A stretch of DNA of 32,000 bases from Pirellula staleyi DSM 6068 (GTDB lineage Bacteria; Planctomycetota; Planctomycetia; Pirellulales; Pirellulaceae): NCBI GenBank assembly GCA_000025185.1, contig CP001848.1, positions 2,790,001-2,822,000 on the forward strand. Reading direction: 5' to 3'. A program made the position numbers and the translations under genes. The notes under the pieces were generated by a model that saw only the letters and a program-made list of their open reading frames with translations, was not told the DNA's origin and made no database searches. Below are positions 26,612 through 32,000 of the stretch, piece after piece (within the stretch, counting starts at the first letter, position 1; each line of letters begins with the position of its first letter).

Positions 26612-26655
26612 TCAAAAAGGAGGCGGCTGACCGCATTTGACCGCTAGCAGCCGCC
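26612..26655 (-). terminator. Rho-independent terminator closing the adaptor/M50 operon
   Basis: On the minus strand, GGCGGCTG-(18 nt)-CAGCCGCC is followed by TCCTTTTTGA. On the plus strand the stem arms are 26622-26629 and 26648-26655, with the A-tract at 26614-26618. Confidence 0.7.
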
Positions 26656-26769
26656 CAAGCGTTCTTGGTAAGGCAGCTTCAGCTGAGGACCCCATCGATG
26701 GTGGGGTGAAGGCCAGAGCCGCCAGCTTCGCTGAGTGTGGTGGCTCGATCAGGCGAGCTTGGCCGAAGC

Positions 26770-29938: not shown

Positions 29939-30027
29939 GATTGGTGTTCCACGTGCCGAGGAGTTGACGAGTAATGATCTTGGACTGGAAAAATCGGCGC
30001 TCGAATCGACCTGAGCAGGAGACCAAC

Positions 30028-32000
30028 TTAGAGCCAGAACAAGATTTTGGATTGCACCGTTTCGATCAAATCGCAAAGCCAAACGCGAGCGATCGGCTGT
30101 CGACCGCAGTAGATCTTGGCGGTCACGGTAGTTTGATCTTGCAAGAGCGGAAGTTCGGACTTGTTAACAGCGACGCGCATCAAAACGCAGTTTCCTTCTT
30201 CCCCACGAACTTCTGCCGTGCGCTCGAGTTCGACCATCGTACCGGTGAATCGCTGGCTTGGATGGCTGCTGAGTACGAAGGTTACTTCGAGTGGTGGTCG
30301 ACTCGATCCGTCGGGCGTTTGATGCTGGGCGTCGTCGATGTGTAGCAGTCGTCGTTCAGGGACAAGTAGTTCGAGTTCCCACTCGCCATCGGGGTTGGCG
30401 AGAGTCATGAGCGATTGCCCACGAATCACGGGGCGGTGCAGCAGCACCTCTTCGACCTTCCAGGTCACCACCTGCCCACGCTGTGGAGCAACGATGGCAA
30501 GTAGTTCCTGTTTCTCGCGAAAGAGGGCAATCTCGCGCTCGATGTTGTCTTGCTCTTGCTTTAGTTGCAGCAGTTCGCCTGAGATCCGGTTCTCGTCGGC
30601 TGGTGTAAGTCGGGCTTGCATTGCGCCGCTATCGAGCAGCATGCGCTGGTGCGAAGCGATTTGTTCTTGATTGGTGGTTTGCCGGCCGATGAGCGCCGCG
30701 AGTTCGACTTCCAAATCGGTGCTGGTGAGTGTCGCGAGTGGCTGACCGCGCTCGACCAACTGGCCATGGCGGACCGGCACTTCGCGCACAATGCCATCGA
30801 TCATCGCAAAGACTTCGCGACGCTCGACCGGTTGTAGCTTGCCACGTGCAGCGACTTCAAAATCGGCGGGAATCACGAAGCCCGCGATTACAACCGCAGC
30901 GAAGATGGCCAGCACGGCAATGGTTTTCGGGATCGCGCGGGTGCGAACAATCCAGCCACCTCGTCCGAGGGCTTTCCACAATGGAAGCAGCAAGATTTGC
31001 GAATGTTCTTGGCTGTTTTGAAGAGCCGACGATGCATGATGCGCTACGGCCAGTGACGTAGCCCGCAAGGATTCATCGAGTTTGCCGCTCGTCAGATTTT
31101 CGATCACGAGCGCTCCGAGCAACTGCCGCGATTCTTTGGCAATCTCTTGTTCGGGTCGGTCGGTCGTGGCTATTGGCGCGGGGGCATAGAGAGGAACGAT
31201 TGCAACCAGTGCGGCGTGCGAGATGTCGAGGTAGGTGTCGAGTGGTTTTTCGATCTCGGGTGGATATTCTGATGCACCGGCGGCATGCCAGAGTGGTTCG
31301 CGCGTGCGGAGGACCACGTCAATCAGCCGCTCGAGGGATGAAAGTTCAGCAGCGCGTCGATCGACATTGTCGAGTCCACTCACAGCTTCGATTTGAGCGC
31401 GGCGTCCTTGCTGAATCGCAATCGAAACGCGATCGCACTCGATAAGACGGCGACCTTCATTCACCACGGCATACGAGGTAGCACGTGGATCGAGCGAGCG
31501 ATGCACGGCGTCGACGAACTGCTGCAGGAGGTTCCAGCGGCGTTTTTGGACGGAGAGTTGTCGCAGCCGATCGTTGCGGAAGTATTCGGCCGCGATATCG
31601 CTCATCTGCACCAGGAATCGGAGATAGCCGCGCTGTGTGGTGGGAGCTCCTCCAGGACGCTGGAGGATCTCGACCACTGCAACGACTTCTCCCTCGACCA
31701 CGACGCTGGCGAGCACGAGCAGCAGCGAACTCGGGTTACCAGCTTCACTATCGCTTGCGGCACCTGCCTGAGGTGGCACCAAGAGCGACTGCGGCGAATC
31801 CATCAGCTTTTTTAGCAGCAGACCGTGACGCGTTCGCGATTGGGGCGATGCGTCGAACTGACCCGCCTCGAGATTCGATTGATACAGGAGTTTGAGCTTG
31901 CCTGTTTCGCCACGCACCCAGATTGCGCCACCGATCGCTCCCATCGCGGAAATCACGCGGGTGAGGTAGGAGTCGGCAAATGTGTCGTGGGAAATCTCGG
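30028..32000 (-). CDS. Tandem-GAF-domain protein fused via one TM helix to a HlyD-like periplasmic adaptor module; the 5' end lies outside the window
   Basis: The reading frame stays open to nt 32000 (...EISHDTFADSYLTRVISAMGAIGGAIWV...). There are two GAF-like blocks (...VVAVVEILQRPGG..., ...LLGALVIENLTSG...). The TM helix is IAVLAIFAAVVIAGFVI. The adaptor-like part contains VRHGQLVERGQPLATL, a coiled coil, APQRGQVVT and a barrel-like tail. Confidence 0.7.
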   Translation of the reverse strand, partial: EISHDTFADSYLTRVISAMGAIGGAIWVRGETGKLKLLYQSNLEAGQFDASPQSRTRHGLLLKKLMDSPQSLLVPPQAGAASDSEAGNPSSLLLVLASVVVEGEVVAVVEILQRPGGAPTTQRGYLRFLVQMSDIAAEYFRNDRLRQLSVQKRRWNLLQQFVDAVHRSLDPRATSYAVVNEGRRLIECDRVSIAIQQGRRAQIEAVSGLDNVDRRAAELSSLERLIDVVLRTREPLWHAAGASEYPPEIEKPLDTYLDISHAALVAIVPLYAPAPIATTDRPEQEIAKESRQLLGALVIENLTSGKLDESLRATSLAVAHHASSALQNSQEHSQILLLPLWKALGRGGWIVRTRAIPKTIAVLAIFAAVVIAGFVIPADFEVAARGKLQPVERREVFAMIDGIVREVPVRHGQLVERGQPLATLTSTDLEVELAALIGRQTTNQEQIASHQRMLLDSGAMQARLTPADENRISGELLQLKQEQDNIEREIALFREKQELLAIVAPQRGQVVTWKVEEVLLHRPVIRGQSLMTLANPDGEWELELLVPERRLLHIDDAQHQTPDGSSRPPLEVTFVLSSHPSQRFTGTMVELERTAEVRGEEGNCVLMRVAVNKSELPLLQDQTTVTAKIYCGRQPIARVWLCDLIETVQSKILFWL

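Follow-up and report, generated by a model that had tools for sequence, protein, structure and literature searches.

A pump-less three-gene unit of Pirellula staleyi joining membrane fusion protein modules to an RRE-like M50 metalloprotease, a candidate machine for leader-dependent export

Organisation of the three-gene unit

A stretch of 32,000 nt of the Pirellula staleyi DSM 6068 genome (contig CP001848.1, positions 2,790,001 to 2,822,000 of the forward strand; hereafter the window) ends in three co-oriented minus-strand open reading frames (ORFs), here named G1, G2 and G3, which are separated by intergenic gaps of 89 and 10 nt. Each encodes an adaptor module of the HlyD type, or membrane fusion protein (MFP), which stands alone in G2 but is fused to tandem GAF domains in G1 and to an M50 metalloprotease in G3. 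The intrinsic terminator that follows G3 has a hairpin of -29.8 kcal/mol (z = -3.5, with 0 of 200 shuffled sequences folding as well) and continues 3' into the U-run UCCUUUUU; it was missed by a consensus terminator scanner because the loop limit of that scanner is 8 nt. The three genes form one transcription unit, in agreement with a preliminary description of the window which had drawn attention to the same spacing and the same hairpin. The features are the following, the recognition domain of G3 being named after the RiPP recognition elements (RREs; RiPP, ribosomally synthesised and post-translationally modified peptide).

26612..26655, minus strand: intrinsic terminator closing the three-gene unit, hairpin then U-run
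26770..28998, minus strand: G3, fusion of an RRE-like domain, an M50 intramembrane metalloprotease and an MFP, 742 aa
26773..27615, minus strand: G3 periplasmic MFP module with coiled-coil hairpin (HlyD_D23, HlyD_3, TIGR01730)
27619..28551, minus strand: G3 polytopic M50 core, about seven transmembrane (TM) helices, residues ~150-460 (hydropathy, motifs)
28057-28086, minus strand: NANPLMRYDG (NxxPxxxxDG) of G3, second M50 motif
28354-28368, minus strand: HEFGH of G3, active-site motif of site-2 proteases (S2P)/M50
28690..28962, minus strand: G3 predicted cytoplasmic PqqD/RRE-like winged-helix domain, residues 13-103 (AlphaFold, pLDDT >90)
29009..29938, minus strand: G2, exported canonical MFP adaptor, 309 aa from its ATG (TIGR01730, HlyD_3)
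30028..32000, minus strand: G1, tandem GAF, TM helix and MFP, partial in the window (residues 58-713 of 713)
30031..30852, minus strand: G1 periplasmic HlyD-type MFP module with coiled-coil hairpin (HlyD_3, Biotin_lipoyl_2, HlyD_D23)
30865..30921, minus strand: G1 single TM helix IAVLAIFAAVVIAGFVIPA (hydropathy 2.84, sole strong TM segment after the GAF domains)
31000..31488, minus strand: G1 GAF-B, cytoplasmic, residues ~228-390 (Pfam GAF, E = 2e-5 to 2e-4; fold matches)
31504..31998, minus strand: G1 GAF-A with long linker helix, cytoplasmic, residues ~58-222 (AlphaFold, pLDDT mostly >90)

Domain architecture of the three proteins

G3 is 100% identical to the P. staleyi protein (P0001) that NCBI names 'peptidase M50'. 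In the AlphaFold model residues 13-103 fold into three strands and three helices, and the ten best fold matches of this domain in the PDB are all RREs or PqqD, among them TbiB1 (5v1v, with leader peptide), lasso B1 (6jx3), PqqD (5sxy) and CteB (5why). The match probabilities range from 0.95 to 1.0 (1.00 for the standalone RRE/PqqD chains), with target-normalised TM-scores of 0.64-0.69 for standalone chains and of 0.14-0.15 where the RRE lies within CteB chains of ~420 aa. As modelled, the N-terminal domain of G3 therefore matches solved RREs in fold; some homologues of G3 are themselves named 'PqqD family' by PGAP.

The M50 core lies barely above the Pfam threshold for Peptidase_M50 (28.2 bits, gathering score 27.2). 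The motifs HEFGH and NANPLMRYDG show no variation among 16 homologues and none or almost none across an alignment of 39 sequences; the core is apparently active. Among the NCBIfam models, residues 41-411 of G3 match NF041824 (daptide_HExxH) at E = 5e-58, scoring 197 bits where the cutoff is 300, and NF058609 (YydH/LiaK) is matched at 6e-12 with 45.8 bits against a cutoff of 225. Because the predicted topology is N-in with seven TM helices, the RRE-like domain would be cytoplasmic and the MFP module periplasmic. A profile of the G3 family matches the solved MFPs EmrA (4tko), MFP 5xu0, MacA (4dk0) and MexJ. The family is very large, with 12,812 representatives at 50% identity for E <= 1e-3 and 4,311 for E <= 1e-30, and the names given to its members by PGAP vary between 'peptidase M50', 'site-2 protease', 'HlyD adaptor', 'PqqD chaperone' and 'hypothetical protein'.

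G2 begins with the N-terminal signal or anchor MHALSLSLLMLYAAGAPPVAQQ and scores 100 bits with the RND_mfp model TIGR01730, above its cutoff of 94.9; HlyD_3 is matched at 2e-16 and HlyD_D23 is matched as well. The exact protein is present on 7 contigs; an exact search with G3 gave no match.

The frame of G1 stays open to the window edge with no in-frame stop. The full protein has 713 aa, as seen in the 100% identical P. staleyi protein P0121, which NCBI names 'putative phytochrome sensor protein', and in the near-identical contig L001, where it has the same length. On Pfam searches G1 shows GAF, HlyD_3, Biotin_lipoyl_2 and HlyD_D23 matches, and its MFP module matches TIGR01843 and TIGR01730 in part. 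The first GAF domain, GAF-A, was undetected by Pfam, also when the isolated sub-domain was searched. The AlphaFold model of the cytoplasmic part (pLDDT 87) shows two alpha/beta GAF-like domains with a long helix between them, and in a Foldseek comparison with the PDB its top matches are the tandem-GAF proteins PDE6, PDE2A, PDE5A and CyaB2 (1ykd), at E of 4e-10 to 1e-8. The tandem-GAF sensor fold of G1 is hence confirmed at the level of the predicted structure.

Coiled-coil hairpins are found in all three MFP modules, and the profile searches together with the matches to solved MFPs establish these regions as genuine HlyD/MFP folds. The domain composition given in the preliminary description, namely a tandem GAF-TM-adaptor protein (G1), a secreted canonical HlyD adaptor (G2) and a PqqD-like domain followed by an M50 protease with intact motifs and a third adaptor (G3), is thus borne out for each protein.

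Pump search and conservation of the trio in Planctomycetota

It had been noted beforehand that the 5.4 kb of the trio hold no pump. Indeed, no ABC, RND or TolC gene was found in these 5.4 kb, among the largest other ORFs of the window (carbohydrate enzymes, an HtrA-like protease, an FHA/coiled-coil protein, a pilin-like DUF1559 protein and similar) or in the extension provided by L001, a contig of a Logan assembly which is identical to the window edge over the 200 nt compared and reaches 7.9 kb further. The term 'pump-less' therefore holds for about 40 kb. What the extension shows upstream of G1 is a gene for a TPR-CHAT protein, described below, and no ABC/RND pump or outer-membrane factor. 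The P. staleyi trio has neither a SecA-like nor a DUF3467 gene in the 10 kb around it.

A scan of one genome per species gave at least 594 relatives, of which the best 80 were kept, all from Planctomycetota. Trio counts were made by tblastn over the 66 informative loci with at least 3.3 kb upstream, and in 57 of these homologues of G1 and G2 lie directly upstream of G3 and are co-oriented with it, so that the trio is kept as a unit in related genomes; the genes that flank it vary between loci. An ABC ATPase occurs within 10 kb of the trio in just 6 of the 80 loci and is adjacent in none, and tblastn with an alphaproteobacterial TolC gave no homologue within 10 kb on either side in any of them.

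Two other genes do accompany the trio in part of the planctomycete loci. A SecA paralogue of ~660 aa with SecA_DEAD, PPXD and P-loop domains stands directly upstream of G1 in 12 of the 80, all from one clade, and a DUF3467 gene (Pfam E = 1e-21) is found in 27, immediately before G1 in some and immediately after G3 in others. Since the adjacency of DUF3467 is retained despite this rearrangement, it suggests a functional partner, perhaps a chaperone; searched against PDB sequences, the DUF3467 protein gave no match. In a neighbour-joining tree of G3 the SecA-like and DUF3467 partners are clade-specific and the P. staleyi copy falls within clades that have neither, i.e. the trio of the window is a SecA-less paralogue. 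The two kinds can share a genome: a single contig carries loci L076 and L084, and a single metagenome-assembled genome carries L010 and L085.

Several observations concern individual planctomycete loci. The DUF3467 protein has ~110 aa and is highly conserved, and its two placements correspond to two planctomycete clades (among L032-L085, e.g. L039:853-1188 and L054:12427-12759); the gene also adjoins the module in Pontibrevibacter and Mesorhizobium. The SecA paralogue is exemplified by L054:4520-6541, with eleven other loci, and is often preceded by a divergent gene for a BBP7 beta-barrel porin (L054:2533-3999), a candidate outer-membrane component. Immediately downstream of DUF3467 in the SecA-linked module of L054, positions 12991-16494 encode an adhesin-like protein of ~1,160 aa with tandem-95 repeats, a cyclophilin domain and the N-terminal motif QQLESRQLLDAA, possibly a cargo encoded in the operon. 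In the Mariniblastus-like loci L022, L025, L029, L033 and L063, homologues of G3 occur without G1/G2 upstream; in their place stands a gene for a secreted, internally duplicated protein (220-255 aa) that matches nothing in Pfam (e.g. L022:9261-9920). Finally, L067 holds a second, much more divergent pair ~5 kb downstream of its main trio (~17000-21500), consisting of a 618-aa MFP and a 722-aa M50-MFP, the latter 26% identical to G3.

Relation to the module described in 2015

The architecture is not new and was predicted in 2015. Kamneva, Poudel and Ward describe in silico a module found in five phyla, usually near a short SecA paralogue, and composed of Peptidase_M50/HlyD, HlyD/biotin-lipoyl and GAF/HlyD proteins; they note the absence of an ABC transporter, propose the SecA-like protein as the ATPase and the M50 protein as the component in the membrane, and state that the components can be encoded apart (PMC4452313). 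For P. staleyi, their S2 Table lists the secondary SecA at a distance of three genes from Psta_0857 (M50) and of four from Psta_0856 (cluster 5) (PMC4452313).

The three protein types of that module are all found here, in G3, G2 and G1 respectively, and both the lack of an ABC transporter and the idea that M50 supplies the membrane part are shared; the P. staleyi window locus and its clade differ by having no SecA-like or DUF3467 neighbour, and the locus is a SecA-less paralogous variant. The paper of 2015 proposes no cargo or leader and, in the sections and tables consulted, mentions no RRE/PqqD-like domain. The preliminary description, which knew of no experimentally characterised system with this architecture, did not take in this in silico description, for which no experimental follow-up was found. 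Nor could it see a partner, the secondary SecA-like ATPase, which adjoins the module in many genomes and also a paralogous P. staleyi copy (Psta_0856/0857).

Plasmid modules of Alphaproteobacteria and their giant neighbours

On tblastn of plasmids, 19 near-full-length G3 homologues were found in Alphaproteobacteria, and 11 non-redundant loci were considered. These modules contain a G1-like protein, a G3-like protein and a small MFP, optionally with a SecA-like protein, DUF3467, SapC or TolC, and their SecA-like proteins are 41-46% identical to the planctomycete SecA paralogue. In 10 of the 11 loci a large gene lies directly upstream of the module or within ~4 kb of it, encoding 1,412 to 12,900 aa, in most cases at least 4,000. 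The loci are listed here with the large neighbour first, then the module genes.

Pontibrevibacter: LEPR-XLL protein of 10.6k aa; DUF3467, G1-like, 'PqqD family' G3, SecA-like, small MFP
Pseudosulfitobacter: LEPR-XLL protein of 12.9k aa; G1-like, S2P, SapC, SecA-like ('prepilin peptidase'), small MFP
Alisedimentitalea: neighbour of 8.1k aa; HlyD adaptor, M50, SecA-like
Mesorhizobium: neighbour of 10.5k aa; DUF3467, MFPs, M50-MFP, SecA-like
Ensifer: neighbour of ~9k aa or more; G1-like, G3, SecA-like
Azospirillum Sp7 and Niveispirillum: DUF4347 proteins of 4.2k and 7.2k aa; TolC, two MFPs, M50-MFP, no SecA
Azospirillum TSA2s: neighbour of 4.3k aa; TolC, two MFPs, S2P
Phyllobacterium: HrpK-domain protein of 1,412 aa without leader motif; two HlyD-type genes
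Tistrella: giant ORFs ~4 kb downstream; no SecA-like match
Indioceanicola: large ORFs upstream (N-termini not determinable); G3-like match

Eight of the large neighbour proteins start with a basic N-terminus followed by LEPRxLLSAD or ALEPRxMFDAA, and two of the large neighbours exceed the cutoff of the LEPR-XLL model NF012209. The LEPR motif segments also give sub-threshold matches to PF07595 (Planc_extracel), and so do adhesin-like planctomycete proteins in the fetched loci. The consensus of PF07595, RRLxxExLExRxLLA, has counted since 2004 as a new type of N-terminal export signal in planctomycetes, and Tuwongella immobilis has 52 genes with a signal of this type (PMC8567305). In Chlorobium chlorochromatii, proteins of 36,806 and 20,647 aa have LEPRxLL N-termini with sapC and tolC alongside; type I secretion is invoked for these giants, and an M50 component is not mentioned (bioRxiv 10.64898/2026.03.19.712371). 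The giant neighbours in other phyla suggest that the cargo of such modules consists of very large, leader-bearing proteins of the cell surface.

Some further features of the plasmid loci (L087-L105) were recorded. The leader seems to come in two subtypes: LEPRxLLSAD goes with modules that contain the SecA-like protein (5/5), and ALEPRxMFDAA with SecA-less ones (3/3), two of which have an adjacent TolC; DUF4347 is present in both annotated ALEPRxMFDAA proteins. The SecA-like partner is named 'DEAD/DEAH box helicase' or 'prepilin peptidase' by PGAP. In the Alisedimentitalea locus (L095; NZ_CP123586.1, ~183224-183330) the start codon assigned to the 8,149-aa 'calcium-binding protein' apparently lies too far downstream, and an in-frame upstream extension holds a basic stretch and the leader LEPRLLLAAD.

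Proposed function and its known relatives

The presence of an RRE-like domain in G3 supports a device that recognises a substrate and matures or exports it. We favour, without calling it probable, the reading in which the trio is a pump-less, type-I-secretion-like envelope machine of the kind described by Kamneva and co-workers, dedicated to leader-dependent processing and export. A further step is put forward more tentatively: the combination of RRE-M50-MFP, GAF-MFP and MFP proteins could possibly be the missing export and processing machinery for proteins with Planc_extracel or LEPR-XLL leaders. To judge from the searchable literature, this link between an RRE-like domain and these leaders is a new hypothesis.

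In such a machine the RRE-like domain of G3 would capture the N-terminal leader of the cargo, in which a basic stretch would precede LE(x)R(x)LL(A/S), i.e. the Planc_extracel or LEPR-XLL signal. The M50 core would then cleave the leader and provide or gate the passage through the inner membrane, while the MFP modules of G1, G2 and G3 would form a periplasmic conduit to an outer-membrane channel encoded elsewhere. The GAF pair may gate the activity upon binding of a small ligand. A SecA-like motor, in modules that have one, would drive the polypeptide; for the window trio, energy may come in trans from the SecA-like ATPase of the paralogous locus, or from another source.

The closest working analogies would be the bacteriocin exporters built on peptidase-containing ABC transporters (PCATs) and EpeP. 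With PCATs that work with an MFP (colicin V and bacteriocin exporters) the trio would share the logic of a protease built into the exporter, which recognises and cleaves an N-terminal leader, and of a cargo handed to an MFP and an outer-membrane channel; PCATs, however, use a C39 cysteine protease, whereas the trio has an M50 metalloprotease, RRE-like recognition, no ABC domains and a presumed cargo that is far larger. With classical type I secretion and tripartite efflux systems (HlyBD-TolC, MacAB-TolC, TriABC) it has in common the periplasmic MFPs with lipoyl, beta-barrel and coiled-coil hairpin parts, and the alphaproteobacterial modules also resemble type I secretion by their adjacent TolC and giant repeat-protein neighbours. 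It differs from them in having no ABC, RND or MFS transporter and in combining three distinct MFP modules, of which two are fusions with other functions, where TriABC uses two different MFPs; moreover, the putative signal of its cargo is N-terminal whereas that of RTX substrates is C-terminal. Planc_extracel (PF07595) and LEPR-XLL (NF012209) are for their part features of the cargo, located at the N-terminus of giant genes adjacent to orthologous modules and absent from the window.

Several points weigh against leader-dependent export. The RRE-like fold matches have marginal E-values (2e-3 to 5e-2), and Pfam PqqD is non-significant on the isolated sub-domain of G3 (E = 0.15). The window of 32 kb and its extension encode no leader-bearing protein, and proteins with the N-terminal motif are not enriched near planctomycete trios, the ~10 in 1.3 Mb being no more than expected from a genome average. 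The PF07595 matches of planctomycete proteins are marginal and below the gathering score, and the cargo link comes from 11 plasmid loci of a single class. No energy source is found at the P. staleyi locus or at the SecA-less loci of the Azospirillum type. We know of no precedent for an M50 core as a conduit for polypeptides of several thousand residues, and no experimental follow-up of the Kamneva module or of the family was found in the literature.

Alternative explanations

Three other explanations were considered, and all of them rank as less likely than leader-dependent export. In the first, the trio is a RiPP-type device in which G3 is the leader peptidase and exporter of a small ribosomal peptide, like EpeP/YydH or the daptide protease, and G1 and G2 extend the export across the outer membrane. 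The RRE-like fold and the matches to NF041824 (E = 5e-58) and NF058609 (6e-12) agree with this, and for the M50 protease EpeP a double role in cleavage and export of its peptide is assumed (PMC10885120). With the RiPP M50 proteases (EpeP/YydH, NF041824 daptide, TglG/TmoG) G3 shares a homologous M50 core and N-terminal region, but it scores well under both family cutoffs (197 vs 300 and 46 vs 225 bits), carries a C-terminal MFP and is accompanied by two further MFP proteins. Moreover, a survey of small ORFs up to 900 nt from the trio in 59 loci gave no conserved precursor-like candidate and recovered only DUF3467 and out-of-frame artefacts, and neither a radical-SAM nor another modifying enzyme is conserved next to it, while the neighbours in other phyla are giant proteins and not short precursors. 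We therefore regard a RiPP-type device as unlikely. The same evidence divides the earlier proposal of a signal-gated peptide maturation and export device: the RRE-like domain supports maturation or export, but the genomic context suggests giant proteins instead of small peptides.

Regulated intramembrane proteolysis, in which G3 would act as a site-2 protease on a membrane-anchored regulator while the GAF and MFP parts sense cytoplasmic and periplasmic states, appears more improbable again. The membership of G3 in the M50/S2P group with intact catalytic motifs and the GAF sensor domains of G1 speak for trans-envelope signalling of this type. However, no sigma factor, anti-sigma factor or other regulator is conserved adjoining the trio, the three hairpin MFP modules, the TolC, SecA-like and SapC partners and the giant secreted neighbours point to transport, and the RRE-like domain is atypical of the known S2P signalling proteases, of which to our knowledge it is not a feature. 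The proteolytic signalling alternative raised in the preliminary description hence finds no specific support.

Ordinary tripartite efflux, in which the adaptors would serve an ABC, RND or MFS pump and a TolC encoded elsewhere with the protease as an accessory, is the least credible of the three. In its favour, G2 passes the RND_mfp model, and the genes of pumps and outer-membrane factors can lie apart from those of the adaptors. Against it, none of the known pumps shows a consistent link to the 80 planctomycete and 11 alphaproteobacterial loci, and thousands of family members have their M50 core in covalent fusion with an MFP, which places it where a pump normally contacts its adaptor. The idea of an M50 protease in the position of the pump remains plausible; it was already put forward in 2015. 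Taken as a whole, the preliminary observation is fully confirmed and its interpretation is partly supported.

Significance

Members of the family occur in most Planctomycetota loci that were sampled and, in a scattered way, in several other phyla, and they appear to form a trans-envelope conduit that uses no known class of transporter. If leader-dependent export is correct, it would represent an ABC-less secretion pathway in which an RRE-like domain reads the secretion signal and an intramembrane metalloprotease removes it, and in planctomycetes several paralogues of the module would act on the products of dozens of cargo genes that lie dispersed. The link to the leaders, if true, would explain the exit of the planctomycete 'extracellular motif' proteins, a question open since 2004, as well as the export of giant LEPR-XLL proteins of 8,000 to 36,000 aa, including the Chlorochromatium symbiosis proteins. 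The Planc_extracel/LEPR-XLL cargo would then include some of the largest bacterial proteins known, and the RRE fold would gain a role outside natural-product biosynthesis.

Neighbouring genes and other features of the window

The gene closest to G1 on the contig extension is the following.

L001:4258-7500, same strand as G1: TPR-CHAT (caspase-like) protein, 1,080 aa, 270 nt upstream of G1

Beyond it, L001 carries CCG and LarN-like genes. The TPR-CHAT gene was ruled out as a partner of the system, being missing from that position in all related loci; the only other CHAT match among these is a distant one on the opposite strand in L086. PADLOC returned no defence-system match for G1, G2, G3 or the CHAT neighbour. 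A scan of the window for the motif LE.R.LL gave a single match, in a regulator-like ORF, and was judged to be due to chance.

On the other side of the trio, a HAD hydrolase gene (25553-26392, minus strand) lies directly downstream of the terminator. Carbohydrate genes are found at 15750-17983, 22921-25134 and 25553-26392, all on the minus strand; they include a GlgX-type debranching enzyme, and in the window a sucrose-phosphate-synthase-like GT4 adjoins a sucrose-6F-phosphate phosphohydrolase, the listed ORFs overlapping by ~290 nt. Further away, 4749-8141 on the plus strand encodes a protein of 1,130 aa with an N-terminal FHA-like (Yop-YscD_cpl) domain and long coiled-coil regions.

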